Part shown: piece by piece, positions 5,719 to 60,946 of the stretch
Layout: each line of letters starts with the position of its first letter
Position numbering within the stretch: the stretch's first letter is position 1
Origin: Ginglymostoma cirratum
Taxonomy: Eukaryota
Assembly: GCA_024137785.1 (NCBI GenBank)
Contig: JAHRHZ010000075.1
Coordinates: forward strand, 23,119,041-23,183,040
Length of the DNA stretch: 64,000 nucleotides
Direction of reading: 5' to 3'
Notes under the pieces: generated by a model
Databases searched by the model: none
What the model was told of the DNA's origin: nothing
Seen by the model: only the letters and a program-made list of their open reading frames with translations
Program-made: the position numbers and the translations under genes

Positions 5719-8476
5719 AGGTTGTAGACTTGCTCAGCGAACTGGTGTTTGATTTCAGACGTTTCGTCACCCTGCTAGGTAACATCGTCGATGCGCCTTC
5801 AGTGAAGTGGTGGTGTTCTGTCCCGCTTGTTATTTATATGTCTCAGTTTGCTGGGGTGGTTGGCATCACTTCCGGTTCTGTTTTTCAGTGGTTTGTATAC
5901 TGGGTGCAGTTCAATGTGCTTGTTAATGGTGTTCCAGTTGGAATGCCAGGCCTCCAAGAATTCCTTGGCATGTCCCTGTTTGGCTTGTGCTATTATGGAT
6001 GCGTTGTCCCAGTCGAATTAATGTCCTTCTTTGTCTGTGTGTATTGAGACCAGTGAGAATTGGTCACGTGTCTTGGTGGCTAGTTGGTGTTAGTGTATCC
6101 TTATTGTCAGTTTTCTTCCAGTTTGGCCTATTTAATGTTTCTCAGTCCTTGCATGGTATCCTGTATATTGCGTTAGTTTTATTTGTTGTGGGTATGAGAT
6201 CCTTTCCATTCCTCAGTAGCTGTCGCAAGGTGGTTATTGGTTTGTAGACCACCCTGATACCTAGGGTCAGAATAGTCTTGTGGTCATCTCGGATATGTCT
6301 CTGATGTACAGTAGGGTGACTAGTGTGTCTGGCCGTGGTGTGTCTTCTTCTTGTGGTCTGTCGCGGAGGCAACGGCAGATTGTGCTTTCTGGGTATCCAT
6401 TCCTTTTAAAAACTCCGTATAAGTGCTCCTGTTCTGCTTTGCGTAATTCTGTTGTTGCTGCAGTGCGCGTTGACTCGTTTGAATAATGTCCTATGCAGCT
6501 CCGTTTGTGTATGTTGGGGTCGTTGGCAGTGTAATTAAGTATCTGGTCTATATGTGTGGTCTTTCTGTATACGCTAGTCTGGAGTTCCCCACTGTTCTGG
6601 TGTTCAACCATTATGTCTAGGAAGGGTAGTCAGTTATTGTTCTTCTCTTCTTTTGTGAATTTTATTCCGGTGAGAATGTTGTTCATGCGTCGGTGAGTTT
6701 CTTCTGGTCTTGTGCGTTTGATAATCAAAAAAGGTGTCATCTACATAGCAGACCCAGAGTTTGGGTTGTATAGTGGGGAAGCACTGTTTATTCTAACCTT
6801 TGCATTATTGCTTCTGCAATCAGTTCTGATAATGGGGATCCCATTGGTGTTCCGTTGATGTGTTTGAATATATAGTTGTTGAAGGTGAAGTGGGTTGTGA
6901 GGCACAGATCCAGCAGTTTCAGGGTACTGTCCTTGATGCTGTTGCTGTCGTGAGATGCCAGCCTTCCTGATTTGTCCAGTGTGGCAATTGTCTCTTTGGC
7001 TAGGTCAAATGTTTATGGATGTAAACAGTGCTGTTATGTCAAAGGATATCATAATCTTGTCCTCTTCTATTCTGGTGTCCTTAATGATGCTGAGGAATTC
7101 TTGGGAGGAGTGGATGGAACGGGTAGCGTTGTCAACTAAGTATTTCGGTTTCCGTTGTAGTTCTTTGGCTAGTCTATATGTTGGTGTGCCTGGTAGTGAG
7201 ACATTGGGTCTGAAAGGGAGCCCTGGCCTGTGTACCTTAGGGAGTCCATAGGAGCGGTGTGTGTTGAATCCCTCTGGCCTCATTTTTTGGTAGTCTGTTT
7301 TGCTGATATCTCCCAAGTTGTGCAATTTCTTCAGGGTTGTTGCAATCTGGTTCTCGAACTGTACTGTTGGGTCTATTGCTATGTGTTGGTAGGTGTCAAT
7401 ATCTACTAGTAGTGTGTTAGAGTCCAATACATTGAGAAAGCTATTAAGGATTAGTATCATGCGTCCTTTGTCCACCGGTAAGATTGTGATGTTTCTGTCT
7501 TTGAGTCTTTTCAAGGCTTTCTTCTCGTGTCGAGACTGTGTTCCACCTACCTTTTCCGCTCAGTGTTGGGACTATCGTCTGTCTGATAGCCTGTTTTATT
7601 TCCTTAAGAGTCTATTCCAGCGCAGCCAGGAAATCAGTTTTTTTGGTGTCTCTGTAGTTATAACTCAGTCCACGTACCAGGACGGTCTTCTCAGTGTCTG
7701 TAAGTGGTCAGTCGGAGATGTTCTTGATTCATGTTTCCGTGCTGTCCGTGCCATTGTTGTGGGGGAGTTTGGATAGTTTTTCTTGTAGGGCTGTTCCTTT
7801 TTTGTTCTGGTATGGTGATGGCTTGTTCCAGTGTGGTTGTCCATTCTTGGTCGGTTGCATTGGAGTTCAAAGTTTTTTGGCAAGCAATTTCCTGCTCGTA
7901 TTTGTGGAGGCGACTGTGACCATCATTAATCATAACCCTTATCATTCTGTGCCCGTTCTGCGCAACTGTTCTCCGTGCCTGTGGATTTTTGATAGGTAGT
8001 TTATATTTTAAGCTTTGTGGTAATACCTGCTTTGGAGGCATTCATGCAGCAAGTACAGTTGCTCGCAGGTCGCACTCCGGCAGATGGTATTTATCTCCCA
8101 CCTGCGGCCAGTTTGAGGGTATTGCGCACGAACAAAGGACACAAATTCAACTGGGGCAACACATCCATAACAGCACGAGCCAAACAGACATGCCAGGGAA
8201 TTCTTGGAGGCCTGGCATTCCAACCAGAACTCCAACAAACACATTGAACTGGACCCTACATACGAACCACTGAAAAACAGAACCAGAAGTAATGCCAACC
8301 ACCCCAGCAAACCGAGGCATATGAACAACAAGCAGGACAGAACAACAATGCTTCACCAGAGACACACTGACAATGTTACCTAGCAGGAATACAAAACATG
8401 TACAATCAAATGAACCGGCTTGGCGAGCAAGTCTACAACCTCATCCACAATCTGAATGACAAATCTTCCCAAAAAC
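5719..8476 (-). mobile_element. Near full-length degraded Penelope-like element (Penelope/Poseidon-like; RT + GIY-YIG) with an inverted terminal arm at ~8125-8476
   Basis: Motifs LPVDKG, YGLPKVH, MISFDITALFTSI, YVDDT, VYRKTTHIDQILNY, IYRIPCKD..IGQTG. 8125-8440 is an inverted copy of 5720-6045. Hammerhead-like cores at 5758-5792 (-) and 8367-8400 (+). Confidence 0.9.
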
Positions 8477-8566
8477 TTTAAAAGGAACATTTTGATTTCA
8501 ATTTTCGGGATCAAAAATCGGACATTACAAACTTGTCAGCACACAAAAATGACAAAGAATATCAGT

Positions 8567-8572
8567 TTTATT
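8567..8572 (-). promoter_or_regulatory. Probable PCMTD1 polyadenylation signal AATAAA
   Basis: Minus strand AATAAA followed by ...gtca and U/GU-rich tttttgtgtg, at the end of a ~1.5 kb repeat-free AT-rich tract after the stop codon. Confidence 0.55.
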
Positions 8573-10031: not shown

Positions 10032-10396
10032 CTATTTTTGTCTATAGAAGGTTAGGTACGCTTTCAAAGATTCTGGTAGTGGCAGACTCAGAATTCTCTC
10101 TCGAAGTAAATTTGGGGAAGCTTCTTCCTGTTTGAGGTCTTCATTCATTTCTTTTTCTTCTTCTTTATTTTCTTCCATTTTGTCATCCTCATCACTGTCA
10201 AATGGCTGAGGTATCAACTGATTGCCTACAAATACATAGGTATCAATTTTACGCCTACGAAGCTTCTTGCGTTTTCGTTTTGGTGCAGCCTTCTGAGGAA
10301 TGCCTTTGGCCTGAATCTCTTGATTTATCAAGTTCCTAAGAGTGCGGCGAATGTAAATCCTTGCCAAGTCCTGGAGGCATCGTACAGTCACTGGTG
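10032..10396 (-). CDS. PCMTD1: PCMTD1 last coding exon (BC-box, basic and acidic tracts, Cul-box)
   Basis: Acceptor ttctgcag, phase 1; (P)PVTVRCLQDLARIYIRRTL...KRKRKK...LPLPESLKAYLTFYRQK*; TAG at 10034-10032. Confidence 0.96.
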
Positions 10397-11194
10397 CTGC
10401 AGAAATGGAAGAAAAAGCTTTCTCGTTTCATTACCATATTTTATTATTCGTTCATGGTGTTGCAAATAGCAAGGGAAGGCTATGTATAATCTTCAGAAGT
10501 GGGGCTATTCTGTTCAATCTTCTGACCTGCCAACCGTCTTTGCACAAACCTGATTTCTCTTTTAGTCTGATACTATTGTTAGCCTTTCTAGTTAACAATA
10601 GAAGATGGATCCAATCCTCGTAATTTTTCTTATTCGCCGAAATTTGCCTATTCTGCAAATTGTAAAACATTAACTTATCAACCAATGCATTTCTACTGAC
10701 CTGTTCTTTAAACTAATTTACTAATGCACTTCAGCAAGCTCTGCTTTCGTTCCTTCATATTTGCCCAGAGTGTCTCAGGCCCATTCCTTTCTCTCCCTCA
10801 AACTACAAGTAAAATTCAACTGTGGTACTGGCCACCTAAAAGATGTTTTCACTAGGAGATCATTAATTAATCCATCTCATTACACAATACCACATTTAGT
10901 ATAGGCTTCTCCCTGGTTATTTCTAGAATATGCTATTCAAAGAAACTATCCTGAAAGCATTCAATTAACTCCTCATCTAGGCTACTTCTGTCCACCTGAC
11001 ATTTCTAGGTGCTATGTAGATTAGAATCTCCATTCATTACCACTGTGCCTTTCTGATAAGCTCTCGTTATTTTGTCCTTTATACTCCGCTTACTGTTAAG
11101 CACTTGTACACAACTGTCACAAGAGACTTCTTGCCTTTACCCTTTCTCACTGCCACCCAAACTGTAACCACATCTTGATTTCCTGAACTTAGAT

Positions 11195-12200
11195 CATAGA
11201 GTCATAGAGTAATGCAGCATGGAAACAGGCGCTTCAGCTCAAACTGGTCCATGCTGACCATGGTTCCCACTCAGCTCGTTCCAACTGCCCACATTTGGTC
11301 CATATCGATCTAAACTCTTCTCATCCATGTACCTATCCAAAAGCTTTTTAAATTTTGTTGTTGTACCTGCCTTAACCACTTTCTCTGGCAGCCCATTCCA
11401 TATTCGCACCATTCTCTGCATGAAGAAGTTGCCCCTCAGGTCCTCCTTAAATCTGTCCCCTCTCACCTTAAACCTATGCCCTCTCATTTTCAATTTCCTA
11501 TCCCTGGTAAAAAGACTATACGCATTCATCCTATCCATGGCCCTCTTGATTTTGTACACCTCAACAAGGTCACCGCTCATTCTCCTACCTTTCAAGGAAT
11601 ACAGTCCTATCCTGGCCAACCTTTCCCTATAACTGAGGCCTACTAGTCCTGGCAACATCCTCATAAACTAGAAAGTGTGCAAAAAAGATTTAACTATGTC
11701 TTTCCTAAAACAGGGTGACCAAAACTGTACACAATACTCCACGTGCAGCCTCACCACCAACTTGTACAACTGTAACATAACATCCCAACTCCTGTATACA
11801 ATGCCTCGACCGATGAAGGCCAGCATGCTAATTGACTCCTGCACCACTCTGCCCATTTGTAATACCGCTTTCAACGAACTTTGTACTTGTACTCCTAGGT
11901 CCCCCTATTCCATAACACTCTTCAGGACCTTACCATTTACTGTATAACTCCGACTTTGGTTTGGCGTTCCAAAGTGCAACACCTCACACTTATCTGTATT
12001 GAACTGCATTTGCCAATCCTCAGCCCCCTTTCCTATCTGATCAAGATCCTGCTGTAATTCTTGATAACATCCCTCACCATCAACATTACCTCCAAATTTT
12101 GTATCATCCGCAAACTTACTAACCATGCATTGTACATTCACATCCAGATTATTTATGTAAATAACAAATAACAACGCTGTGGCACACCACTAGTCACAGG
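11195..12200 (-). mobile_element. CR1/HER1 LINE, RT C-terminus and 3' tail
   Basis: LFVIYINNLD..SKFADDTK, VRLHVEYCVQFWSP, LVEVYKI, RGHRFK; (ctatgact) tail at ~11195. Confidence 0.9.
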
Positions 12201-12203
12201 CCT

Positions 12204-13246
12204 TCGTTCCAAGGGCCAACTCCCCCTCCCACTCCTTGGACGACATGTCCATCCTGGGCCTCCTGCAGTGCCACAACAATGTTACCCGAGAGTTGCAGGA
12301 ACAGCACCTCATATTCCGCTTGGGAACCCTGCAGCCCAATGGTATCAATGTGGACTTCACAAGCTTCAAAATCTCCCCTCCCCCGAGCGCATCCCAAAAC
12401 GAACCCAGCTCATCCCCACCTCCCTAACCATTCCTCCCATCTCAAGCCCCACCCCCATCTCTTTCCCACTAACATCATCCCGCCCCCTTGACCTGTCCGT
12501 CCTCCCTGGACTGACCTATCCCCTCCCTAACTCCCCACCCACACTCACCTTTACTGACTCCACCCCCATCTCTTTGACCTGAGAGTCTCCTCTCCACCTA
12601 GCTTCTCCTTTATCCATCTTCTATCCGCCTTCCCTTCTCTCCCTATTTATTTCAGAATCCCCCTCCCCTCCCCCAATTCTGANNNNNNNNNNNNNNNNNN
12701 NNNNNNNNNNNNNNNNNNNNNNNNNNNNNNNNNNNNNNNNNNNNNNNNNNNNNNNNNNNNNNNNNNNNNNNNNNNNNNNNNNTGCAGGAACAGCACCTCA
12801 TATTCCGCTTGGGAACCCTGCAGCCCAAAGGTATCAATGTGGACTTCACAAGCTTCAAAATCTCCCCTCCCCCGAGCGCATCCCAAAACAAACCCAGCTC
12901 ATCCCCACCTCCCTAACCATTCCTCCCATCTCAAGCCCCACCCCCATCTCTTTCCCACTAACATCATCCCGCCCCCTTGACCTGTCCGTCCTCCCTGGAC
13001 TGACCTATCCCCTCCCTAACTCCCCACCCACACTCACCTTTACTGACTCCACCCCCATCTCTTTGACCTGAGAGTCTCCTCTCCACCTAGCTTCTCCTTT
13101 ATCCATCTTCTATCCGCCTTCCCTTCTCTCCCTATTTATTTCAGAATCCCCCTCCCCTCCCCCAATTCTGAAGAAGGGTCTCGACCCAAAACGTCAGCTT
13201 TCCTGCTCGGCCTGCTGTGTTCATCCAGCTCTACACCTTGTTATCT
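12204..13246 (+). mobile_element. Neptune-like PLE 3' fragment (GIY-YIG end, pyrimidine-rich UTR, hammerhead-bearing pLTR), duplicated across a 100-N gap
   Basis: EQHLIFRLGTLQPNGIN; core ctgaagaagggtctcgacccaaaacgtc at 13168-13195; ~12294-12682 is repeated after the gap from 12783. Confidence 0.85.
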
Positions 13247-13254
13247 TGGCCTCA

Positions 13255-15100
13255 TTTGATGATCCCTTAAGAATATCTTCTCTTAGTACTGTTATGTCCT
13301 CCCTTATCAAAAGGGCAACTCCCCTTCCTCACTTACTTGTACTTCTGTCATGCCTGTAGCTTCTCTATCCTGCAACATTGAGCTGCCAGTCCTACCTTTC
13401 TTGCAGCCATTTTTCTGCTATGGCTATAAATATCCCAGTCCCCAGAGCCAATCCATATTCTGACCTCATTTGCCTTACCAGTCAGGCCTTATGCATTGAA
13501 ATAAATGCACTTTAAACCAAAAAAAGTCTTTTCCCTCCCTCTACTGTGCCCCTGGCTATCCTGAATAGTAAACTTGCTCTCAATGGCTAATGCATTTTCC
13601 CCTGACTTCTCAATGGCCCCTCCCTTACTCAGACTCTCATCCACCTGCCAAACTAGTTTAAACTCTCCTGGGTAACACTAGCAAATCTTATCACAAGGAT
13701 ACTGGACCCCCTCTGGTTCAAGCGCAACCTGCCTCTCTTGTACAGGTCACCTCTACCCCAGAAGAGATCCCAATGATCCAAGAACTGAATACCCTGCCTC
13801 CTACACCAGCTCCTCAGCTACGCAGTCATCTGGCCTATCTTTCTATTTCTATCCTCACTGGCACGTGGCACTGGGAGTAATCGAGAAATCACTATCCCTG
13901 CTTTTTAACTTCTTACCTAACTCCGGGACCCCAATCCCTTTGTTTATGAATGTCATTTGTACCAATGTGCACAATGACCTCTGGCTGTTCACTCTTCCCC
14001 CTTCAGAACATTCTCAACCGCTCCGACAACCTTGACCCCAGCACCCAGGAGGCAACACATCATCCTGGGGCCTCTTCTGTGGCCACAAGATCTCCTGTAC
14101 CCCTCACAATTTAGTCTCCTTTCAATATTGCTCTGTCTGACTGCATCATCCCTCTCTACTTTGCTCACAGCATCATTAAATAACAAAGCCACACATTCAC
14201 CTGTGATAACAAGCATGGGGCTGGATGAACACAGCAGGTCAAGCAGCATCATAGGAGCAGGAAAACTTGACGTTTCGGGCCTAAACCCTTATCAGAAAAC
14301 CACACATTTACCTGTTCCTGTTTTCCTGTCATTCCTAAATGTCTTCCACACCTCAAGAATTTAGGTCCTGTCAACTTTAGCCCAGAGATGTCCTGAACTC
14401 TGGCACCACTCAGACAACACAGACATCTGGACTTTTTGCTATAGACAATGGTGTCAATCCTTCTCACTGCCTTGTTCCTTACTTGACCTACATTTTTCTT
14501 ACTCTGTTCTCAAGTGGTTTCCTGCATTATGGTGCCATGCTTAGGTAGCTCACCCTTCCTGCATCTCTCACCCTCATCCAAACAAGATGAAAGACCCTCA
14601 AACCTGTTGGGTAATTGCAATAATTGGAGGGTCTTGTGCTCCTGCCCTCTGTAAATGAGGCAGATAAGGAGACCCAGTCACATTCACCTAGCCCTGAATA
14701 CTTGCCCAATCAGATAGTTGAACCCGAAGTGATGTGACTCCCTCTTGGTACAAAAGAATCCTTGATGCATCCTGATGTCTGTAGCTCAGCTTAAAGTCTG
14801 AGCTGAAGCTGCTTGTACTTTAGACATATATTGCAGATACATACTGGACAAAATGGGTATCAATATTGCAACTGTGACTCATTACCTGTCCACCCAAGTT
14901 TAACATGTTCTAAGGAACTATTTAATTATTGTACTTAGCTTTATATTTATTTATGTTCTTATGTATTTTATTAATATGATTTACAGCTGCTATACCAATT
15001 TGAAGCTCAGGAGTTGAATAAACCTTAATCACTTACCAGATGCTCACCAATTAACCAGCTTATTCTCCTGTAGCAGAGCAAGAATCAATTCCTGGAAGCT
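13255..15100 (-). mobile_element. CR1 5' part: ORF1 SGNH-esterase remnants and start of the ORF2 endonuclease
   Basis: Minus-strand remnants CCLLGAGVK and CCLSGARVQD, GTNDI, WGRGDLYKR..LNQRG. The CR1 ORF1 esterase is established knowledge. Confidence 0.65.
14205..14299 (-). mobile_element. ~95-bp solo hammerhead-bearing PLE terminal unit with TSD
   Basis: Core ctgataagggtttaggcccgaaacgtc (14295-14269); flanks ccacacattcacctgt (14189-14204) and ccacacatttacctgt (14300-14315). Confidence 0.8.
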
Positions 15101-15684
15101 GAAAATGTTTAGGCAAAAACAACCAAAAAAAAAAAAAAACAGCCTTCATTTGACTCCAGCACTATTGTAAGTCACACTCAGCACTACGTTGCACGAAGTT
15201 GACTGGCTTTATAAGATCGTAAGTGAGTCCGATGAGCTGAAGTGTTAAGGGGAATCCAGTTTCAGTTAATTCTTAATTAAGTTGCTTTTTCACTGGAACT
15301 CTTGGAAAAAACCCTTAAGGTTGGTAATTATTGAATTTAAGTGTAGATTTCAGTTTAATGTCAACGACATAAATTCCTTCAAAATAAAAAAACTTAGGCT
15401 TTCTTAGCCAGCAACTACATGCACTTAGTCCTCAACAAAGATAAGACTAACTGCTTAGGTGTTAAAATTATGAGGTTCAAATGATCTTTTTGTACAATTT
15501 TAGTATTTATAATAGCTCACATTTGAACTACAGCATCTCAAATGATTTCATATGTTAATGCTAACTGCATGCCAGTAACATTATAGATGTGCTTATTTTA
15601 TTGGAATAAAACTTGTTCTGCATGATCCCATTGCTTGAACAGCAAAATAATAGTTAATTTTTTGTTGAAGAAAAGTTTTGATTA

Positions 15685-15879
<195 letters not shown>

Positions 15880-16135
15880 TTAGGATATAGAAAACACAGT
15901 GCTTTGTGATCCACTGTTACTATAAACGTGCAAGTAGTCTCCACTGCTAATCGCTAGTTTTGTTTTTGCTCTACATGCTTACGAATGCAAAGCAGATTTT
16001 TAGCAACACAGACTCACTTAAGCAACAGATATTCTGAACTCTGCAACATACTATTGAGGCAAGCTTGGATATGCTATTGTTATTGATGATGGTGTCTACA
16101 TTTCTAACTGAACAGACTCGCTATTGAGCTAACAA

Positions 16136-16430
16136 GGGTGGCACGGTGGCTCAGTGGTTAGCACTGCTGCCTCACAGCACCAGGGACCTGGGTTCGATTC
16201 CACCCTCGGGCGACTGTCTGTGTGGAGTTTGCGCATTCTCCGTGTCTGTGTGGGTTTCCTCCCACAGTCCAAAGAAGTGCAGGCTAGGTGGATTGACCAT
16301 GCTAAATTGCCCGTAATGTTCAGGGATATGTAGATTAGGTAGGTTATAGATCTGGGTGGGATGCACTGAGGTTTGGTGTGGACTTATTGGGCCGAAGGGC
16401 CTGTTTCCACACTGTAGGGATTCCATGAAT
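16136..16430 (+). mobile_element. HE1-type V-SINE
   Basis: A-box, B-box, V-domain and tail all present. Confidence 0.9.
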
Positions 16431-17094
16431 AACAGTTGCATTAAAACTAACAAATGAGGAAGAAATGCCTTCAGGCAAAAGATGAGACAAGAGTAGTCAT
16501 ATCGTAGATAAGTAAAAACATTTTATAATGCTTATCTCCACATTTTTTGGCATAGACCAAATGTTTAGGTAAACAGTGATTTTTCACTTTGGCACAGTAG
16601 TTGATTCGGAACTCCAAAGTACAGTGTGAATATGATCTGATGACAACTATTCCATCAATATAGTTCTTCTTCCCACACAATTCCCAAATTAATTGCCAGG
16701 CAAGTTTACTGGAAATTAACGATAAATTACAGTCTGACTTATTCTGTCAATGTACATCAATAAGAACTGAATGCAGACAGCCTCTCTCTTTTTTAGACAG
16801 AAACTTCAGATTATGGCAATCTGGATTCCAATTTGTCTCCATGGATGGGGACAATGGGTTCAAATCTCAAACGTAATCGTGAAGAAGTTCTGATAATCTA
16901 CTTTTCAAGATCATTCTTTCTTAATTTTCATCCTTTTCCAATGTATTACAAGTAGTCAACAGTGTTTGCCTAATGTGTTCCCCTAAGAGGGAGTCTCCGC
17001 ACTCAAGGCCACTCATTCAGAAAAATTAGCTGATAATTCATTAAGTTAAGGTTTTAAATAGCAGAAATCAGATTTTTTCTTTTAAAAAGAACAT

Positions 17095-17122
17095 AAACAA
17101 ACAAACAAACAAACAAACAAAC
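17095..17122. repeat. (AAAC)7 microsatellite
   Basis: Read directly. Confidence 0.9.
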
Positions 17123-17368
17123 AGTCTAGTCGTTTGAATAACAAGGTAGGATGTTCATTTTGTCCTCAGTTTGTCCAGCACTTCCTGTTATATTTGCGAT
17201 TTACAGCATCTGCAGTATTTGGTTTGTAAATCTATTAGTTTGTGTTAGATTTGGACTCTGATCTCGTAGGCAAGAAGCTTTGACTGAACTGTATGCATTC
17301 TAATGTGTTAAAGACTGAATTAATGACAGACAATGAAATGGGTTAATAAATTGCTAAATATCACTCTA

Positions 17369-17596
<228 letters not shown>

Positions 17597-17807
17597 TTAC
17601 TACATATTTTGTAAATGGATACAAGCTTGGCACTAGACCATATGTACAACCACTCCCATTTTACAAGTGGCTCTAGCCAAAATGTGGCAGAACAACATCA
17701 ATACTTTTGACATGCAGAACGGCAATTTTTTTTTTAAAGCAAGTAAAAATGTAGTTAATGACCTTCAATCTATTTTTTACAAATAACTAAAACAATGAGA
17801 ACAGGTA

Positions 17808-18750
17808 GGAGACAGAAGGAAGTGGTAGAGGATTGCTTTTCAGACTAGAGGCCTGTGACCAGTGGTGTTCCACAAAGATCAGTGCTGATTCCACTGCTAT
17901 TCATCATTCATAGAAACGATTTGGATATGAATATGGGACGTGTGATTAGTAAGTTTGCAGATCACACCAAAATAGGTGTAGTGGACAATGAAGATTATCT
18001 CTCAGCACAATGGGACCTTGATCAAATGGGCCAATGGGAGTGGCAGACAGATAAATGTGACATGTTGCATTTTGGTAAAATCAGATCAGGGCAGGACTTA
18101 GACAGTTAATGGTGGGGCACTGGAGAGTGTTGCCGAACAAAAACACCTAGGGGTGCAGGCGCATTGCAAGTGGAGTTGCAGGCAGACAGGGTGAAGGCGG
18201 CGGCATTTGTCATGCTTACCTCCATTTGTCAGAACACTGGGTATAGGAGTTGGGATATCACGTTGCAGCTACACAAGACATTGTTGCGGCCACTTTTAGA
18301 ATTATAGCATATAATTCTGGTTGCCCTTGTATAGGCTGTTAAACTTGAGAAGGTGCAGAAAAGATTTACAAGGATGTTGCTGGGACAGGAGGGTTTGAGA
18401 TAAAGAGAGAGGCTGAATAGGGTGGGGCTTTTCTCCCCTGGAACATTGGAGGCTGAGGGGTGGCCTTATAGAGATTTAGAAAATCATGAGGGGCATGGAT
18501 AGGGTGAATAGCCAAGGTCCTTTTCCTAGGGTGGGGTAGTCCAAGACATCAGGGCATAGGTTCAAGGTGAGAGGGCAAAGCTTTAGCAAGGACCTAACAG
18601 GCCACTTTTTCATGCAGAGTGTGGTGCGTGCATGGAACGAGCTGCCAGAGGAAGTGGTAGAGGTGGGTACAATTACAACATTTAAATGGCATCTGGATGA
18701 GTACGTGAATAAAAAGGGTTTAAAAGGGATTGCTGGCAAATGGGACTGGG
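17808..18750 (+). mobile_element. CR1/HER1 LINE RT fragment
   Basis: VTSGVPQRSVL, ISKFADHTK, FFMQSVVRAWNELP. Confidence 0.9.
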
Positions 18751-18759
18751 TCTGTTCAT

Positions 18760-19060
18760 TCTGTACTGAATTTTGTTTCAAGAAGGTATCTGACAACATA
18801 GAGGCAGTAGACAGTTTGACAGAGGTGGTAAGGTAGTACTGATTGTCATCAGCCATTGCAGAAATTGCACAGTATTTTCGGATGCTACTGCCAAGGGACA
18901 GCCCGAGAGTGAGAAATGGAAGTGCAAGGATAGATTCTTGGGAGACAGCAGAGATTCCAACACAGAAATGGAAAGAGGAGGCCTGGATGATTTCTTTGGC
19001 TATGATTAGCTTGATTAGAATGGAACCGGATGGATGTAACAATGGTAGCAATTCCTAAGG
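18760..19060 (-). mobile_element. Old L2-like LINE RT fragment
   Basis: SAVSQESILAL resembles GVPQGSILGP; ADDNQ resembles YADDTQ. Confidence 0.45.
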
Positions 19061-19234
19061 GAGACTGCTGCCTGTAGATTGAAATTTAATGGAAAGAAAC
19101 ACGGAACTCTAGATTATCAGTAGCAGGGAAAATAATATAATCCATTATAAAGGATGTGATAACTGGGCACTTCAGAAATAATGATCTGATTGAGCAGGGT
19201 AAACAAAATTACAAGAGGAAATGTTTGACAAGCA

Positions 19235-20170
19235 AGGTGTAATAGATGAAGGGGAAACCAGATGCAACATGTTTGGATTTTCAGAAGGCTTTTGTTAAAG
19301 TTCCACACAGGACATTAATAAATAAAATTACAGCACATGGGGTAGGGGTGAATATACATGGATTGAGAATCAGTTAATGGAAATAAAACAAAGAATGATA
19401 TTTTTTTTAAAAACAGGTCATTCTTCGGTTGGCAGGCATTGTAAAATGCAAGGATTAATGCTTGTGTCCAGGTTGTGCATGATCTACAATGATTTGGCTG
19501 TCAAGGCCAAGTGTAATATTCCAAGTTTATGGATGACAAAATTATGTGGAAACGTATTTTCAGGATGATGCAAAGAGGCTTCAAGGAGATTTCAGCAGGA
19601 TAATGGAGGTGGCACGAACATGGTAAATGCAACATAATGCAGATGTTAATTTTGCTAAGAGGAACGAGAAGTGCAGAGTATTTCTTAAATGGTGAGAGAT
19701 TCATAAATAATGACATCTGAAGGGACCTGGATATGTTTGCAGATGAAGCAAGTAATTAGGAAGGCAAGCATACATATGCAATTATCACAAGATGACTTTA
19801 AAAGCGGAGTAAATATGTCTTGTTCTACTGAATAGAATCCTGATGAAAATACATCCAGAACCGGGCACACAGTTTCGGTCTTCTTACTAAAAGGAAGGAT
19901 AAAATTGCCATTGAGAGAGTGTGCAGCAGAGGTTCATGAACCTAACTTGTGGGATGGAGGGATTGTCCAATGAGGAGGGATGGAGGAGAGAGTGTGCCTA
20001 TATTCTTAACAGTTCAGGAGAATGAGAAATGTTCATATTGTAATTTACAAAATTCTTAAATGGATAAGACAAGGTGGATGAAGACAGGATGTTTCCCCTG
20101 GCTGTGCAGGTTTAGAACCACGGGTTGGAGTCTCAGGAGAAGTGTTTTTAAAACGAGAATGAGGAGAAAT
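19235..20170 (+). mobile_element. Degraded CR1 LINE RT fragment
   Basis: ttggattttcagaaggctttt (LDFQKAF), aagtttatggatgac, and CR1-like C-terminal sequence. Confidence 0.65.
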
Positions 20171-20384
20171 TGCTCCACACCTGAAGCTCGGGCTACTGCT
20201 TTAAAGATGTCAGTATAAGTCCCACACGGTGAAATTGGAATTAAATTTTAAAAATGCTCGTCTCATGGTAACCACTAATTTTGACTGTTGTAAAAGCCTG
20301 TCTGACTCATGAATGTCCTTTAGGGAAGGAAATTTTACCGATATGACCTCCATTTTTTATTATTAATTTCTGAGAAATGCAAGA

Positions 20385-23170: not shown

Positions 23171-23199
23171 AAGATCTAGAATGGTGGTACACAGTCTTG

Positions 23200-23650
23200 A
23201 GGAGTTCAGGGTCGGCTCCTGCTCTAACTTGAATGCACACCTGGTCAACGTCCACATCAATCTTCCCTAAATTTGAGATCATCAAAAGCTCTCCTTCCCA
23301 TGTTCCAACTTGTACTAAATGCTGTCCAACAATCCTCTGGTCACTCACCTATAATGGCTCCCAGTTTGGCTTTTTTTTTTAAAATGCTTATCTTGGCTTC
23401 AAATCTTTCAACAATCTGGCATCTTGCTAATAATTATAACATCTCATCAGGTCTTAAATCACTCAGATTGTTGCACTCCCTGTTCCGATGCAACCCATAT
23501 TTAGGCAATGTTTTAAAACCCACTTCTATGACTCAGCTTCCAGTCTTTTTAAATAATTTGTTCTTATATTGCTTGGTCTAGTTTTATAACACCCAAGTGC
23601 AGCACTTTGTGATGTTGAAACATTCTAAAGATACGTTACAAATACAAGTT
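23200..23650 (+). mobile_element. Old L2-like LINE 3' fragment
   Basis: Degenerate tttaaaatgcttatcttggctt (FK.LIL) and L2-like tail gcactttgtgatgtt...aaatacaagttgctgtt. Confidence 0.4.
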
Positions 23651-23958: not shown

Positions 23959-24640
<682 letters not shown>

Positions 24641-42656: not shown

Positions 42657-42769
42657 CAGGAAAGATTTTTTTTTTAAACTCTCCAACAAAAGATAAATGA
42701 TAAGCTACTTTTCACTTTAAGAAGAATATACATAAATGCACAAGGACAAAATAAACAGTTAGTGATGTG

Positions 42770-46100: not shown

Positions 46101-47655
46101 TCCACGTCGTCACCAATGCAAAATCTAACAGAATAAGTTTTTTAGAAGTGCTACCGACATTGTGTGCTGCACACAGCACAATTATGATGCGAAGGTTAAT
46201 TACGTCCTAGAGAGTTCCTAGTGATTTAAACAAGCCTTCCAAAAGTCTTCCTTGTAAACTGTAATCACAATCTGGTTGACAGCACGAACCACACTGTACG
46301 TTAGTCACCCAAACATCCTTGGGCTTTAGCATCATCAGAAGTCACTGGTGTTGAGGGTAGGAGTGTAACAGTAACTAGCCTTTTGTTTTTTTTTTAAATT
46401 CACCCATGAGTTGTGAGCAATGTAGACAGGACAAGCATTTTTATTGAATTTTTTCACATAACATGCATTCATATGAACTGATGCTCCTGGTACCAAACAC
46501 TAGCTGCTCTGGCATCATGGACACAGGGAAACTAGCAGTATGAAAAACCATAATATTCATTTCATGAGTCTGGTTCAAATGACTTGAATAGAACATTAGA
46601 GTTGTATTAACTTTAACTACAACTATAGGAGATAAGTGGAAATGGGTTGCAAGTCAGAGATAACTCTGCTGTATGTTCCACATGACATATTTGGTATCTT
46701 TACAATTCTTAGTTAGTCCTGCTCATTTTCTTCCTCCTAACGCCAAGAAAGATGAAACACCAAAAAGAATAATTACAGTAAACTAGAAGGTCAATAGCTG
46801 TTATGCTAAAAAATAAATCACAGAATCATCGCTGTAGGTATTGAGCAACTTGGGTGCTGCTGGAACATCACCTAAAGCTACCAGGTCATTATTAAAGAAA
46901 AGTAAGAACTTCTGAGAATTCGAACAAGCAGTGGTTTAGGACAGTGGAAAAGGGAAAAGGGACAAGGGGCAAGTAAATCACAACAAAAACTAGTAGAGGT
47001 AAACACCCAGCAGCAGATCTAAATGCCTGGTTTCTTTCTTCATAGGACCAGGAATATGCCACAAGGTAGTTAAAAATGTCTTTCTTCTGAAAACAGCATC
47101 CAGTCTTTAATGTAATTTAAAGCACTTAATATACTCTGAAACCTTCCAATCAATAGAAGCCTTGGTTAACCTTACAATCAACCATTGGTAATCAAACACA
47201 AGTGAGAAACTCAAAAACATTCATAGTGTAACTCAAATCAAATCTTAAAGCTATCAGCAATAACAGTAGGGATGTTACGTTCACACCATAGTTATGCACA
47301 AATAATTTCATTCAATAAAAAGATTTACTTTAGTTCTCACAAGAACATCTTAGAGAGAAAATTGGGTAAAGAATGAGTAACTGTTTCAGACAAATTTATT
47401 TTAAAATATTGCACGGCTTTCATTACATAAGACGATTCTGAAGAAAGCTATGCCACCCTCATGTAACCAGACAATAAATATTTTCAACTACACAGACTAC
47501 AATGTTGAAGAAATATATTTTCCACAGAATTGTTTTGTACTGTTAACTAGCTTTTAAGTGGCAAAACAGTTTACCCAATCAACAACAGAGTGATTGAAGA
47601 CTGAATGGATCCCAAATACTAAATACTTCACTCAAACCAAATAGGTCCAACTTTA

Positions 47656-48213
47656 GAGATAGTAGGAACTTCAGATGCTGGAGAATCTGAGATAACAAGG
47701 AGTAGAGCTGGATGATCACAGCAGGCCAAGCAGCAGAGGAGCAGGAACCCTGCAGCCCAATGGTATCAATGTGGACTTCACAAGCTTCAAAACCTCCCCT
47801 CCCCCTACCGCATCCCAAAACCAGCCCAGCTTGTCCCCGCCTCCCTAACCTGTCCTTCCTCCCATCTATCCCCTCCTCCCACCTCAAGCCCCACCCCCAT
47901 CTCCTACCTACTAGCCTCATCCTGCCCCCGTGACCTGTCCATCCTCCCTATACTGACCTATCCCCTCCCTAACTCCCCACCTACACTCACCTTTACTGGC
48001 TCCACCCCCACCTCTTTGACCCGCCTGTCTCCTCTCCACCTATCTTCTCCTTTATCCATCTTCTATCCGCCTCCCCCTCTCTCCCTATTTATTTCAGAAT
48101 CCCCTTCCCCTCCCCCATTTCTGGAGGGGGGTCTAGGCCCAAAATGTCAGCTTTCCTGCTCCTCGGATGCTGGTTGGCCTGCTGTGTTCATCCAGCTCTA
48201 CACCCGGTTATCT
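47656..48213 (+). mobile_element. Truncated Neptune-like PLE end with an inverted 5' arm
   Basis: Inverted arm 47656-47746 joined to ccctgcagcccaatggtatc; degenerate core 48121-48148; perfect TSD taggtccaacttta (47642-47655, 48214-48227). Confidence 0.87.
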
Positions 48214-50237
48214 TAGGTCCAACTTTATCCTGTTAAAGAAATTCACTTGGAATGGTGTGCTTTTTTGCAAATGTTTTATCTACACTCAGTTTATTATAAA
48301 ATTTTAAATGCTTTGACACACTAATCAAATTGATTCCATCTACCCTTGGACAAAATTTGGATTTATATAGGCTTTTTAATACCAGTAAACATCCTAAGGT
48401 ACTCCATAATTGCATTATAAATCAGAGCCTGGTATAAAGTTACACAAAGGAGGTATTAAGTCAAAGAATTCAACACAGGCCTCTCTGGCTAAGCGCAAGG
48501 GTCAAAGTAGAAAAGCAAGGAGCAAAGCAGAAAGGAGCAAGCAGAAGCAACCATAAATTAGGGACAAGACAGTTCAAATCATGGCATCTATTATGGCACA
48601 ATTATAATTTGGAATACACACATGATAGAATTAAAGACATTTCAGAGGGTTGAGAGGTTGGAGATGATTGCATAGATAAGGCCCAGGCCATAAAAGAATT
48701 TAAGTACAAGGATTCTAAAATCAAAATGCTATTTGAGCGGGAACCTCGCAGGACGAAGCATGGAGTTATGACGCAGGCAGAGTTTTGGATGGCCTCAAAC
48801 TAAAAATAGGGCATAAATGGGGGAGATCAACCAGGAGTCTGTTTTGAAAACAGTCAAGTCTAGACATAATGAAGGTATGGATGAAGGCTTCAGAAATAGA
48901 TGATACTGCAATGTCAATGTGCTGAGGCAGGGAGAGGTTGACCAATGTCAGAGAGGCAGAGATAATGGTCTTTCATTTTGACAGCCTCATCAAACCAGAA
49001 TTAAACTTCAAAAGCAGTGCCAAGCATTTTAAGCATGGCGTAAAAGCATTTTAGATTTCCAGTTGCACCATTTGTTGGCACTTGTAAGTATCAGGAGGAA
49101 AAAAAAATCTTAGACATTGCAGCATTATTAGTCCTGTTAATGACCACTTATTACCGCAATGCTATCATCTTCACACATTTCACAATTACTCATTGCAAAA
49201 TGCAATTAATTCTACATTGAAAAATGTACTTTCGCACCGTTTAGTGGAATAAAAATGTCAACAAGTAGCCCATCTAAAGTACTAATTACATTTTCGCTGT
49301 TTATGCCCATTAAAGTATATTTAATGGTCAGAGTCTGTAGAATAGTATCAAACTTTACAAAAAAAAAATCAGGACAATATTATTCTCAAATAAAAAGGCA
49401 GATGCTTGCCTGACATGCTGACTAGTTCCAGTAGTTCCTGTATATATTTCAATATTATTTTTACATAGTTGCCAATATTCTTTCCCCTGCCATAATTAAT
49501 TAGAAGAGACTTGCGTGGTTACTATGAGAAATAATTATATCCAAAGAGTTTGAGAGAGAGACTGGTAAAAGCAAAACTCTAATTGTAGAAGGACACAGCA
49601 AATTCTGCTTAGATTTAAATAGGAGGTATATTAGCTGATTAGCATTATGAACTAATACTGAGCAAGCATACCAGCATCTTGATCTTAACAAAACTCAAAA
49701 TCTACAGAGGACCAACAATATGTGGTTCAGTGACTACTATTAAGCCTACAAAGTACAATGACTGAGTTTTGTATACACCAAATAACTAAACCGCTGCACA
49801 ATTGTTAATACAGAAACTGCTGGGTAAAAAATAATGGCGGCCCATCCTCATACCAGCTCAGTATTAGCATGATGTAGTGAAATAGTTGCTGTTCAATCAA
49901 AACAATTAATCTTGATTAAATATTCTAGAAAATCCAGAGGTGGGAAGGAAACACCATCTAGTTAGAAACCATGGGTCCAAAGTTACCCTTCTCTCCCAAG
50001 CATGTATGCCTACCACATAAACTGTCTCAAAATTGCTCATACACTGCAGCCAAAATATTTTCTGTCAATTTATTATGTCCATTTTCTCAAATATGCAACA
50101 AAAAGCTTCTGTATATTTGCTTCAAAATTCCCCAGTTCCCACCCATCCCTTTTTAAGCAAAGGCCCAGAATCCTGATGGGGGATTTTGGAGGGGAGAGCA
50201 GAGATGGAGTAGCAGCAGTGGAAATTCCATTTAATGC

Positions 50238-50253
50238 GCCAGTAGGTGGTGCA
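50238..50253 (+). promoter_or_regulatory. CTCF-like motif
   Basis: gccagtaggtggtgca resembles the CCASYAGRKGGCRS core. Confidence 0.45.
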
Positions 50254-50618
50254 AGTTTCCAACTTTAGCACCCAAAGCTCTAGAACTGCAAAGTAAAATG
50301 AAAAGCTATTTTTCATTGATGCTTTAAGTTTACGGGTTTTATATATATCTCCACTGGATGCCATTCTGACAACCACCATCACCTCTATAGTTGGGCAAAT
50401 GTGGGCTGAGATTCAAAACCTGTGATTATTGGCAGACAAAAGTCCTATTTGCTGACAATGCAGAATAAAGCATAGACATTTGGCCTACCATCATTTTCTA
50501 AAAGTAACAAAAGACTAAATGATTTGGTTAATCAGTGACTTCTTTGGCACTAGATTTTATAACAAATCATTGCTTACCACCTTAATATTTCTGGACAACT
50601 CTCCACAATGGCAATTCA

Positions 50619-51263
<645 letters not shown>

Positions 51264-55870: not shown

Positions 55871-56345
55871 GGTAAAATAATAGTATGAGATAAAAATTAC
55901 AAATTTTAGAAGTACTTAGTATTTTTAGGCCAACTTCCTGCAACGAACAAAAAGAATTATCTGTTCCAAGTTGAATCTGCAAAGCCTGCACTACTCAGAA
56001 CCCAAAAGCCGTGGTTCAGGTCTTAGTCAGACATTATTTTTACGTTAAATGCACTGCTGAACTCTAACTAGTTCTCCTCCCAGATATCTTATGCACAATT
56101 ATCAGCAGTGGACACACTGGGTTAGGGAGAACGCAACACAAGTTCACCACAATGACAAAGATTAAACAGCTAAACAGATCAGGGAGGCCAGCAAACTTCA
56201 AATATCACTATATATGAGATCTCAGAGTAGAATAGCACTGACTTGATTGTTCTTCTGTTTGCTTCTCCCAAAACAGATTCCATCCATGGGTTTGAATCTA
56301 ACAGGCTATTTTGCTCATCCATGGGCAAAACATACTTATGCCCAA

Positions 56346-56999
56346 GAGACAGTAAGAACTGCCAATGCTGGAGTCAGAGATAACACAGTGTGGAGCTGGA
56401 GGAACACAGCAGGCCAGGCAGCATCAGAGGAGTAGGAAAGTTGACGTTTCGGGTCAGGACCCTTTATCAGAAATTTCAGAAATAAGAAATTTCTGAAGAA
56501 GGGTCCTGACCCAAAACTTCGACTTTCCTACTNNNNNNNNNNNNNNNNNNNNNNNNNNNNNNNNNNNNNNNNNNNNNNNNNNNNNNNNNNNNNNNNNNNN
56601 NNNNNNNNNNNNNNNNNNNNNNNNNNNNNNNNNNNNNNNNNNNNNNNNNNNNNNNNNNNNNNNNNNNNNNNNNNNNNNNNNNNNNNNNNNNNNNNNNNNN
56701 NNNNNNNNNNNNNNNNNNNNNNNNNNNNNNNNNNNNNNNNNNNNNNNNNNNNNNNNNNNNNNNNNNNNNNNNNNNNNNNNNNNNNNNNNNNNNNNNNNNN
56801 NNNNNNNNNNNNNNNNNNNNNNNNNNNNNNNNNNNNNNNNNNNNNNNNNNNNNNNNNNNNNNNNNNNNNNNNNNNNNNNNNNNNNNNNNNNNNNNNNNNN
56901 NNNNNNNNNNNNNNNNNNNNNNNNNNNNNNNNTCGACTTTCCTACTCCTCTGATGCTGCCTGACCTGCTGTGTTCCTCCAGCTCCACACTGTTATCTCT
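56346..56999. mobile_element. Palindromic PLE-terminus element with two hammerhead cores (contains a 400-N gap)
   Basis: Cores 56443-56470 (-) and 56493-56520 (+); same arms as 41612-42273. Confidence 0.85.
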
Positions 57000-57589
57000 G
57001 GTGGCCAACATATCTGCACTTTCCATTAAGGAATTAATAAATAATTCTTAGAAGTTATCTAGTTAGTCAAGCACATGCACAATAACAGAAAATGTAATTT
57101 TGCAAAATCATAAATTATAAATGTCATGTTAGACAAGATCACCGCAGCCCATTTCAAAATCCTGTTGATATTTATACACTTTAAATGTCTATCTTTGATG
57201 CCATGAATCAAACGAAACTGGACTGCCCTCTAGAGTTTTACATACTGTAAATCTGCCCAGAAATTTAATTGCTAGACACTTTGAAAGTTCAGAGAACTGC
57301 CCGATGCTTGCAGAGATTCTAGTGAAAAAAATAAGGTTAATTAATCCTTATGCGGCCATACGTGATTCCTGGCCAAAATGGAGATGGATTAATGATCTCT
57401 GCCAATCATATCCAAGCACCATATTATAATAAAAGTGACAAATTAATTGTATACACAACTGGCATTATAACTAGCCTTCATTCAGTGTAGTTTGGTGGGG
57501 AAAATCACCAGGACTTTCGAGAAGGTGTTGCAACTTCAGTCAAAAGTTGTTTGCTCAAACTTTTTTTAAATAAACTGTAAATCAGCATT

Positions 57590-57684
57590 TTCTGAAGAAG
57601 GGTCTCGACCCGAAACGTCAACTTTCCTGCTCCTCTGATGCTGTTTGGCCTGCTGTGTTCATCCAGCTCCACAACATTTTATCT
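57590..57684 (+). mobile_element. 95-bp solo hammerhead-bearing unit with a perfect 15-bp TSD
   Basis: ctgaagaagggtctcgacccgaaacgtc (57592-57619); ctgtaaatcagcatt at 57575-57589 and 57685-57699. Confidence 0.88.
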
Positions 57685-58684
57685 CTGTAAATCAGCATTA
57701 TTTGTTGTGTAATATATTGTTTGCAGGGAGTCCGGCCACATGTCATGCACCACCTCCAACTCAGTAGCCAGTCAATAATCAGTTTACACTGATCTTTTTG
57801 TGGGGAATAATAATAAACACTTTATCTTTCCATGTTGCCTGTGAAACTCTAACTGGACAAAGCTACTTTAGTGATTGCAATGAACTGTTCAAACCCTTTA
57901 TTCGAAAGTCTAGTTGAAATTGTTGATTTTCATCAAGCACCATTCTCATCCTAAACACTCCTGGGATAAAGATCAAATGAATTCACTAGAGTAGGCATAT
58001 TCTCTAACTTTATTTTGTAGGTGGTTATCAACAGGAAGCCAATACTCTGATGTAGAATAGAATTATATAAATGTCAGGAATACAGACTATAGAAATCCAA
58101 GTACAAAACATTGCTGATCTAATCTTAGTATCTGGCTACACGTATGAAGAAAGGCTGCTTAAATGAAGAGTGCTGTTGGTACCAATGGAATCTCTCAATA
58201 AATAAGCAGAAATATACTAAAAAAAAGAAAAATCAAAACATGATTGATGACGGACTAAAATTTCTGATAGCAAAAATCATTGCACATCAACCTGCTAGGT
58301 TGCATAAGCAATTTACAAGAAAACGTGTCATGAGAATTTGAGTACGTCAAAGAAAGAGATGTTGTCAAAAAGCCAAGTACAGTCTAAGTAGCAGTAGTTA
58401 ATTTGAATCATTAAGAAAGCCACATCATGACCAACTTATAAATGTGTCATAACATGCATAGTTAAAGAAACCAGAATCAGCAATCTAAAGCAGAATTCAA
58501 GTCTTTCATCTTGGTTAATATCGCTTTTCCTAAATATCATAGATATTTCTTCATTGTTTAAAACAATTGCCACTTTCTAAGAGGATTAGTATCAGCCTTG
58601 TATGAGGAAGTAAAGGCACCACAGCCCCATCGTAGGGCTCCTCCACGTTTAACCTGAGGGTCACCATACCTTAGGCAAGGTTTA

Positions 58685-59845
58685 ATCAGTCCACACCAAA
58701 AGCCATTCCCAAACTTAACTCGTCCCACCTACCTGCACTTGGCCCATATCCCTCCAAGGCTTTCGTATTCATTAACTTATCCAAATCTTGTTTAAATGTT
58801 GTAATTGTACCTGCATCCACTACTTCCTCTGACAGTTCATTCCACACACAAACCATTGTGTAAAAAACATTTGCCCCTCGAGTCCTTTCTAAATCTTTCT
58901 CCTCTCATCTTAAAAATATACCCCCTAGTCTGGAACTCCTCCACTCTGTGGAAAATGCCCTTTTTATTCACCTTTTCTTTGTCCCTCATGATTTCATAAA
59001 TCTTAAAGACCACCCATCAACTTCCTACGCTCCAGTGAAAAAAGTCCCAACTTATCCAGTCAATTTTTATATCTCAAACCTCCATTCCTGGCAACATCCT
59101 GGTAAATCTTTTCTGAACCCTCTCCAGTTTAATAATACCCTTCCCATAAAAGGGTTACCAGAACTGCAAAGTACTCTAGAAGAGGCCCTCAAAAATATCC
59201 TGTACAACCTCATCATAATGTCCCAGCTTCTATACTCAACGGTCCAAGCAATGAAGGCAAGCCTGCTAAATTCACCTAGTCTGCCTGTGATGCAAATTTC
59301 AAAGAATCATATACCTGAACTACTAGATCTCTGTTCTACAACACTACCCAGGGCCCTACCTTTAATTGTATAAGTCCTGTCCTTGTTTGTATCACCAAAA
59401 TGCAATACCTCATACTTGTCCAAATATAACTCCATCTGTTGTTCCTCAGCCTATTGATGCAATTGATCAAGATCTCTTTGTAGTTTTAGATAACCTTCTC
59501 ATCAATTCACAATAACACCAAAAAAAAAATCAGCATTTTCTGAAGAAGGGTCTCGACCCAAAACGTCAACTTTCCTGCTCCTCTGATGCTGTTTGGCCTG
59601 CTGTGTTCATCCAGCTCCACAACATTTTATCTCTGTAAATCAGCATTATTTGTTGTGTAATATATTGTTTGCGGGGAGTCCGGCCACATGTCATGCACCA
59701 CCTCCAACTCACTGTCATCTGCAAACTTACTAACCATGCCTCCTATATTCTCATACAAATCATTCATATAAAGTGACAAACAAAAAAGTGGATCACCGCT
59801 AATCACAGGCCTCCAGACCAAAAACCAAAACTCCAGCACCACTCC
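58685..59845 (-). mobile_element. CR1/HER1 3' fragment interrupted by a 185-bp insertion
   Basis: YMNDLYENIGGMVSKFADD breaks at 59711; CR1 sequence resumes at ~59520. Confidence 0.85.
59527..59711 (+). repeat. 185-bp near-identical copy of 57579-57763
   Basis: Two differences seen by eye. Confidence 0.9.
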
Positions 59846-60865
59846 CTATCACTACCCTCAATAAGTGCTGGCCAGCCTGTGATGCCCATGTTCCACGAGT
59901 GAATTAAAGAAAAGGAAATATTCTAGTATTGCAGCTGCACAGGAACAGTCTGGCTAGGGACGCAGCATGCCCCGTAACACAAGTCTTCAGCCCTAACAGC
60001 ATTCTGGTAATAGTACTATAGCCTTTGCAGTACCTAATGCCTCCAAACATTTTGTGACATCACATGAAGTGAACCAATTGTCATCTGTGATTTGGAGATG
60101 TGTGGAGGAGGCAGAGATGAATCCTTGACACTGAAGACTGTTGCAAATTCTTCAGCCTTAACTTTTGAACTGACGCTGCTGGGCTCCCCCATCGTTTAAA
60201 GGATGTTTGTTTGTAGGCCAAAGTGATATTAAATATTAAACATTTAAATTTTTACTGTAGAAAAAAGGGATTTATATACAGCTGAAAACACTGACTATCA
60301 GAATAAGCACCTCATGTTGCAAACTGTACTTGTCTTTCACCCTGATCGAATTCCTGCTCCATCACACATATCGGTACTCAGATTTAATTTAAAGTCATTT
60401 AAAGCATTGCACGATATTGATCTAGGCTAAAACAATTTAGTTTAGGGAAACAACTAAAAATTACAAAAAAAATTCATTATTTATTGCAGCTTCAGTAATG
60501 ACTGACAAGTTTGCACCCTGAACACACATGCTTTGAAAAACAACACTTCTACTTGTTTCAATGTATTTACTTTGCAAGTTCCAACATGCAGGAGAATATA
60601 CAATCAGATACTACAAAAGTTAACCAAATCAGCAGCTTTACAATGCCAACTTCCTTGTTTAATACCTAATTTGTCAGTAATGCATAAAATTTTGTGGACT
60701 GTAACTTTGGCAAACACTCCTGCCCCATTTTCTAGGTCACTTAGAAGCAAATCAGCAATTTGCAGGCTGACATTGCAAGGGGCTTGCCATCCCAACAATT
60801 TATCCCAACAACCTATTTATTAGACTCAACTCTCAAGCTTTCAAACCATTTCAAAATATTTAAAG

Positions 60866-60946
60866 AGATAACAAGCATGGGGCTGGATGAACACAGCAGG
60901 TCAAGCAGCATCATAGGAGCAGGAAAACTTGACATTTCGGGCCTAA
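60866..60946 (-). mobile_element. Truncated solo PLE terminal unit, almost identical to 14205-14284
   Basis: gataacaagcatggggctggatgaacacagcaggtcaagcagcatcataggagcaggaaaacttgac; ends in the stem II loop. Confidence 0.8.

Follow-up and report, generated by a model that had tools for sequence, protein, structure and literature searches.

Hammerhead motifs and elements at the locus

A stretch of 64,000 nucleotides from Ginglymostoma cirratum (assembly GCA_024137785.1, contig JAHRHZ010000075.1, positions 23,119,041 to 23,183,040 of the forward strand), referred to here as the window, carries repeated copies of a small ribozyme motif in and around a PCMTD1-like gene. Judged by their sequence, these are minimal type I hammerheads in the pseudo-long terminal repeats (pLTRs) of Penelope-like elements (PLEs), and most are decayed. 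The initial annotation had listed about 15 of them, and our scans and family profiles confirmed all 16 of its positions as a CTGANGA-helix II-GAAAC-GTH motif or a decayed homologue; it nevertheless overstated the set, as the core is mutated at one or more positions in 13 of the 16. Many of these changes are G12>A or 16.2>A at CpG sites. The minimal PLE hammerhead core (C3UGANGA9...G12AAA15.1, U16.1 H17, in type I order) is intact in the other three window copies, in 46 strict matches from a genome sample described below and in all five family consensuses.

Motifs on the plus strand are numbered by C3 and those on the minus strand by H17, the latter having C3 at 5791, 14295, 41733, 42545 and 56470. 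With the core required intact, helix II at 3 bp or more and 15.2/16.2 paired, a strict descriptor matched the window three times (27326, 41759 and 57592), against a single match in total in 30 dinucleotide shuffles of it. A looser scan allowing up to two core changes recovered 13 of the 16 motifs together with four unrelated matches, and family profiles found 20 pLTR-tail arms: all 16 motifs, a partial arm (60865-60945), a tail-only arm (47655-47747) and two pieces beside runs of N. An Rfam search of the window returned no hammerhead family at E <= 10. Because of head-to-head pairing and local duplication the motifs are not independent: four head-to-head insertions account for eight of them, 59540 duplicates 57592 locally, and the 16 reduce to about 12 insertion sites.

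Four families, A to D, are present. Family B, of Poseidon type, comprises a long, decayed minus-strand arm (5702..8127) with fragments of the reverse transcriptase (RT) and GIY-YIG regions and a changed hammerhead (C3 at 5791, H17 at 5758; C3>T, U4>C), a short plus-strand arm head-to-head with it (8131..8483; hammerhead 8367-8400; G8>A, G12>A, 16.2>A), and a decayed plus-strand element (25898..27430) whose hammerhead (27326-27359; helix I TGCA/TGCA) has an intact core. Family D is represented by one frameshifted Neptune-type element on the plus strand (31585..33854) with RT, zinc linker and GIY-YIG, followed by a hammerhead (33754-33780; helix I CAGTC/GACTG; G12>A, 16.2>A).

The remaining insertions belong to family A, with one pair from family C. 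Two plus-strand family A copies are element 3' ends: 12217..13249, of Neptune type, has the end of the GIY-YIG domain, a pLTR with TATTTAT at 13133, a hammerhead (13168-13195; G12>A) and a short tail, and 38575..39443 has GIY-YIG, a hammerhead (39339-39366; G12>A) and a long tail. Within the former, 12294-12682 and 12783-13171 are repeats of each other across a run of N. Two inserts begin at helix I and have short tails: a 94-bp minus-strand copy (14205..14298) that has lost G8 and has a 16-bp target duplication with one mismatch, and a 97-bp plus-strand copy (57589..57685) with an intact core (57592-57619) and a 14-bp target duplication. The whole of the latter insert and its 3' flank, 185 bp in all (57579-57763), recurs with 99% identity on the plus strand at 59527-59711, where the hammerhead (59540-59567) has G12>A and the copy adjoins sequence resembling a long interspersed nuclear element. 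A minus-strand fragment with a short tail (60865..60945) is truncated inside helix II and so has no CTGANGA.

Among the head-to-head pairs, a minus-strand long-tail family A arm (41611..41740; C3 at 41733; G8>A, 16.2>A) meets a plus-strand short-tail arm with an intact core (41751..42279; 41759-41786); 41611-42279 is likely one insertion, because its N run has edges that share 32 nt and the whole lies between the copies of a 14-bp target duplication with one mismatch. The family C pair joins a minus-strand long-tail arm that begins at helix I (42408..42549; C3 at 42545; U4>G, 16.2>A) to a plus-strand short-tail arm (42557..42655; 42563-42592; C3>T, 16.2>A, U16.1>G), with a 12-bp target duplication. 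Another pair, bounded by a 14-bp target duplication (47655-48213), consists of an inverted, minus-strand long-tail family A arm that lacks a hammerhead (47655..47747) and a plus-strand short-tail arm with a pLTR (47744..48213; hammerhead 48121-48148, four changes). In a further pair, both family A arms begin at helix I: a long-tail arm on the minus strand (56345..56474; C3 at 56470; G8>A) and a plus-strand arm (56489..57018; 56493-56520; G12>A, 16.2>T) whose N-run edges overlap by 14 nt. Rfam matches to microRNA precursors, below the gathering score, at 56438-56523 and 41715-41775 are the fold-back junctions of such inserts, and hairpins of this kind could supply much double-stranded RNA.

At three runs of N (41759-42279, 56493-57018 and 12294-13171) the edge letters repeat (32, 14 and about 390 nt), as at scaffolding gaps; what look like tandem copies at these places may thus each be one copy. 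Masked sequence and true gaps look alike in these runs.

The PCMTD1-like host gene lies on the minus strand (10032..50972, ends approximate), with a PCMT domain exon, a SOCS-box last exon and splice joints at 15813-17384 and 17553-23958; its introns contain ten of the 16 motifs. Poly(A) read depth at 8584-10575 suggests that its last exon reaches about 8.5 kb, near the family B arm at 8131-8483. A Pfam search of 12 decayed frames of the window identified the host gene only. A dispersed repeat of about 300 bp, presumably similar to a short interspersed nuclear element (SINE), has at least six copies in the window (281-601, 3045-3234, 16141-16436, 25331-25647, 30911-31126 and 51820-52113).

Parent elements, ribozyme structure and copy number

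The initial annotation had attributed the motifs to two PLE clades, and the open reading frames (ORFs) found beside them bear this out. A 790-amino-acid frame with RT (E 1e-6), a C-x4-C-x2-C linker and GIY-YIG (E 6e-5) terminates about 260 nt upstream of a family A motif, and homologous RT/GIY-YIG frames precede family C and D motifs as well as the window motifs 13168, 33754, 39339 and 48121. Scores for RVT_1 in two PLE frames were 28.9 bits, just under the 29.6 cut-off, and 31.9 bits. Families A, C and D thus follow Neptune-type ORFs with a zinc-finger-like linker, and family B (5791, 8367 and 27326) follows a Poseidon-type ORF with a distant RT and without the linker; by motif rather than by tree, we assign the former to Neptune and the latter to Poseidon. 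A single ORF with RT and, at its C terminus, GIY-YIG, a pLTR with a hammerhead, an optional tail of 30-40 bp and an inverted truncated arm are all features of endonuclease-bearing (EN+) PLEs, and all are found here. A full-length, intact element with both pLTRs was not recovered from the loci examined, and two open frames of 2,085 and 2,101 amino acids, considered as long PLEs, proved to be runs of N.

The families differ in how their coding sequence relates to the ribozyme. In family B an ATG at A9 opens a frame that runs through helix II, and in family A the main ATG is about 140 nt past the cut site. By eye, an upstream family A frame of about 40 codons spans the tail, its stop lying 2 nt upstream of the main ATG (sampled regions L245, from 1554 onward, L224, L226 and L242). 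A fifth family, E, has AGCT at 15.2/16.2 and a helix I of AACAC/GTGTT or TCAC/GTGA (for example at position 3153 of sampled region L036 and in its neighbours); it accounts for nine of 251 sampled arms and is absent from the window.

Helix I reads ATTT/AAGT in family A, AGTT/AACT in C, CAGTC/GACTG in D, AACAC/GTGTT in E and TGCA/TGCA in B. The proposal that stem III is a bare ACGT palindrome without a loop holds for families A to D; an extra base precedes the G10.1-C11.1 pair. Stem II was correctly described as varying between families while keeping its pairing, but the 5-bp helix given for family A (GGGTC/GACCC) would leave a loop of only 2 nt, and we therefore assign it 4 bp and a 4-nt loop (GGGT-CTCG-ACCC). 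In 14 hand-picked copies from the five families, stem positions paired in 87% of cells, compared with 64% after shuffling and 22-44% in slid controls, and both sides had changed in seven of nine stem pairs, although the relatedness of the copies inflates these pairing scores. Stem covariation, on which the ribozyme interpretation had been made to depend, was therefore found between families, and an invariant core within changing stems in two clades points to selection in the transposing lineages. In context, the D and B consensuses were predicted to fold into both helices and that of C, when started at -4, into helix II alone; helix I of family A is weak (ATTT/AAGT or worse). An upstream hairpin that would sequester the core as a general switch received no support from folding.

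To place the window in its genome we used a random sample of 120 regions of 10 kb, of which 48 were wholly or nearly N and were dropped; the other 72 (717.5 kb from 14 large contigs) contained 251 pLTR-tail arms, 161 of them spanning the hammerhead, and the 46 strict motifs. If the sample is representative, this scales to about 1.5 million arms, 1.0 million hammerhead-spanning copies and 0.28 million strict motifs in the 4.36-Gb genome. Exact genome-wide matches gave 1,174 occurrences of one 29-mer and 90,758 of one Neptune core pattern, with none for a reversed control; these counts are lower bounds because 48 of the 120 sampled regions read as N. About a million hammerhead copies are therefore likely to be present. 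The very large ribozyme-bearing population that the initial annotation had predicted thus exists, but the density from which it was predicted is average for this genome and not a local feature, the window having 20 arms in 63 kb. In published work (Cervera and De la Pena; PMC4209133) the count is about 4,000 in the coelacanth and 9,000 in Xenopus; by comparison with the latter figure, copy number here is 10-fold (exact matches) to about 30-fold (extrapolated strict motifs) higher.

Where copies begin and end

The 5' ends of copies are concentrated at the first base of helix I. Measured from C3, 36 of 139 family A ends and 33 of 88 family C ends fall at -7 to -2, against about 4.5 and 2.7 expected from the background. 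Upstream of an A that matches the initiator pattern YYANWYY, long copies have TATTTAT at -31 (A), TATAAA at -29 (C) or a weaker TTTAT at -31 (D), at the spacing usual for a TATA box. Starts at the cut site, by contrast, are near expectation in family A (5 against 4.5), and cut RNA would thus be at most a minor template. Leaving aside the templated C, the base before A(-4) is, genome-wide, G in 3,403 family A cases, A in 2,523 and T in 1,048; in family C, with fold-back junctions excluded, it is G in 551 and T in 274. Base content predicts a G:T ratio of 0.70. The small sample of family C agrees, with G at nine of 17 starts against 4.5 expected. An extra G marks capped full-length L1 inserts in the account consulted (PMC11702581). 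The coincidence of the pile-up with the TATA/initiator position, together with the excess of G, points to a capped transcription start, and we consider it fairly probable that the 5' ends of copies mark such a start, predicted to lie at helix I.

Several observations weigh against this reading or the wider one of which it is part. Seven family C copies start near the cut site where 2.7 are expected (P 0.02, uncorrected), although several of them look like decayed upstream matches. In the small sample, family A lacks the G excess at -4/-3 starts (four of 23 against 6.4), 13 having instead a T from a longer T run. Control junctions show a mild G skew of their own in one set (19 of 56 against 15.7; the other set has eight of 31 against 8.7), extra pieces are frequent at junctions, and of 13 G junctions inspected nine were unresolvable, two were explained by the opposite arm and one was a clean untemplated G beside a target duplication. 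An unstranded poly(A) RNA run showed no position where many molecules begin or end. Furthermore, the family A consensus folds in context into neither helix I nor helix II (P ~0), family E likewise forms neither, and for family E, unlike families A to D, no linkage to an ORF was obtained.

The same pile-up would arise if RT paused, or found a microhomology hot spot, at this point on a longer RNA. The family A site consists of a U run, an extra T is found at many junctions, 57592 is joined through an ATT common to its target, and the ribozyme fold has its outer edge there as well. However, family C copies start at the same position at AGTT, where there is no U run, the TATA and initiator spacing fits families A and C and, weakly, D, and the G excess is seen genome-wide in two families; we regard a pause or microhomology as unlikely. 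A splice acceptor was also considered and rejected as the cause: the family A candidate lies at -24, and short copies have no common upstream exon.

The 3' ends have two modes, about +65 and +101 relative to the cut site, which corresponds to the known optional tail. Head-to-head pairs contain 133 of the 230 arms of families A, C and D, and in 48 of the 49 pairs in which both ends could be called a long arm is joined to a short one (P 9e-14); in 19 further pairs one arm was uncallable. A target duplication of 10-18 bp is present around 26 of the 40 adjacent pairs but around none of 40 controls, which indicates that a head-to-head pair is one event. Most simply, each target end would have primed one of two cDNAs, at two RT start sites like those demonstrated in vitro for the Anolis element PAc. 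For rotifer Penelope elements, palindromes where inverted copies join have been used to argue for self-priming on an antisense template (Arkhipova et al., 2013; PMC3846280, as consulted), and such palindromes do occur here; self-priming would not, however, predict that the two arms have different fixed tail sites, or that each is truncated independently, and we think it improbable for these elements.

Equally doubtful, in our view, is that the dispersed copies are a population of active ribozymes, cutting host transcripts either as dimers or with a protein's help. The core is complete in 56 of 88 family A, 17 of 49 family C and two of nine family B hammerhead-spanning copies, and all three intact window copies are antisense to the host gene, but this strand skew is not significant (0/5 against 3/11, P 0.51). 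The family A core has diverged less than the tail (2.5% against 5.6%), a difference that is confounded by subfamily changes and base content and is absent in families C and B. In the poly(A) run, 41,281 of 12.9 million records fell on one family A stretch, yet they came from both strands and 74% of them continued into unrelated sequence; a second RNA run yielded 29 reads only. The motif is thus transcribed as a passenger, and the RNA reads are uninformative on cleavage. Dimer action, which the initial annotation had cited for PLE hammerheads, fares poorly here: a same-strand neighbour within 1 kb exists for only 14 of the 161 hammerhead-spanning copies, and the core occurs in none of 44 tandem arrays found in the 717.5 kb and the window, so that cis dimers are rare and the copies are not retrozymes. 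Most copies cannot form a cis dimer because they are solitary or lie head-to-head on opposite strands, and head-to-head arms would pair as a long hairpin instead.

Finally, copies most often take the form of inserts of about 95-135 bp, each with a target duplication of its own, but that these inserts are an independent non-autonomous family (a SINE or retrozyme) spread through ribozyme-cut circles is very improbable, given the lack of core-bearing arrays, the absence of anything in common upstream of short copies, the subfamily letters that these share with ORF-bearing copies, the spread of 5' truncations over the whole pLTR and the retention of a core that cut RNA would lose.

Known systems and the role of the ribozyme

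The motif class has been known since 2014, when the motif, its dispersal and its opposite-strand pairs were described (Cervera and De la Pena; PMC4209133); the copies in the window are mostly dead and typical of the genome, and what we add is a census and two mechanistic signals. As far as the consulted parts of that paper go, the motifs here share with its PLE hammerheads the type I order, the absence of loop 3, the palindromic 15.2/16.2, one base between 9 and 10.1 and the G10.1-C11.1 pair, and likewise occur mostly as single dispersed motifs, with close opposite-strand pairs, in both Poseidon and Neptune; helix II differs, with 4-5 bp in the Neptune families compared with 7-8 bp in Schistosoma. 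The closest mechanistic parallel is PAc, a Poseidon element of Anolis that uses an uncleaved RNA template and two RT start sites and extends both strands (Frangieh et al., 2024; PMC11167929). The two start sites, which define the tail, the extension of both strands and the uncut template match our reading of the copies here, and family B also has the ATG at A9 with a frame through helix II; Neptune family A, with its distant main ATG, does not. The consulted account of PAc does not describe the joining of long to short arms in genomic pairs or a start at helix I.

Similarly, an inverted, 5'-truncated arm, an optional 30-40-bp tail at one end, target duplications and TATA and initiator-like motifs in the pLTR are reported for EN+ PLE units (Arkhipova et al., 2013; PMC3846280; Craig et al., 2021; PMC8557442), although the sections consulted explain the inversion by antisense self-priming and the tail by resolution through the endonuclease, and do not tie the initiator to the ribozyme. 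Non-LTR (long terminal repeat) retrozymes, which are present in one cartilaginous fish, also have PLE-derived type I hammerheads but, according to the part of the report consulted, form tandem arrays (Li et al., 2026; 10.64898/2026.07.22.740005), none of which were found here. Drosophila Penelope transcripts start 46 nt upstream of an intron that reaches as far as helix I, which differs from the start proposed above. Titles and abstract openings on shark PLE hammerheads, PLE start sites, twin priming and cap G contained no counts, helix I start or long-plus-short rule, and the supplements of the 2014 and 2026 papers may cover this group.

Taken together, we hold with reasonable confidence that these are hammerheads of Neptune and Poseidon PLE terminal repeats, present as short decayed insertions, likely as passengers, and likely copied from uncut capped RNA that is predicted to begin at helix I. 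Each motif is found either at the 3' end of a PLE RT/GIY-YIG frame or as a truncated copy of such an end. In the Neptune pLTR, a TATA-like box at -29 to -31 would direct initiation at an A (+1) 4 nt before C3, so that the transcript would start with the ribozyme. By analogy with PAc (Frangieh et al., 2024), the protein would then nick the two target strands 10-18 bp apart and each target end would have its own fixed site for the start of cDNA, about 65 nt beyond the cut site for one and about 101 nt for the other, a pattern that the genomic pairs display. Each cDNA would run towards the 5' end, often off the cap, which would leave the extra G, and the joining of the two ends would yield a head-to-head insert. 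Core and stems are kept between families while inserted copies decay. Cleavage itself, if it occurs, would probably need the PLE protein or a partner RNA and would not be an insertion step.

In the text consulted, Craig et al. (2021; PMC8557442) call the role of PLE hammerheads unclear. As a tentative extension, the Neptune hammerhead may be the first 32-34 bases of a capped mRNA, where protein-assisted cleavage would remove the cap and limit the element's own translation, two RTs being primed at two tail sites per insertion and the million copies recording both. At this scale, the copies are a record of PLE insertion and of the position at which the RNA starts. If the ribozyme does start at the cap, its role becomes testable as decapping, rather than as monomer release from a tandem RNA.

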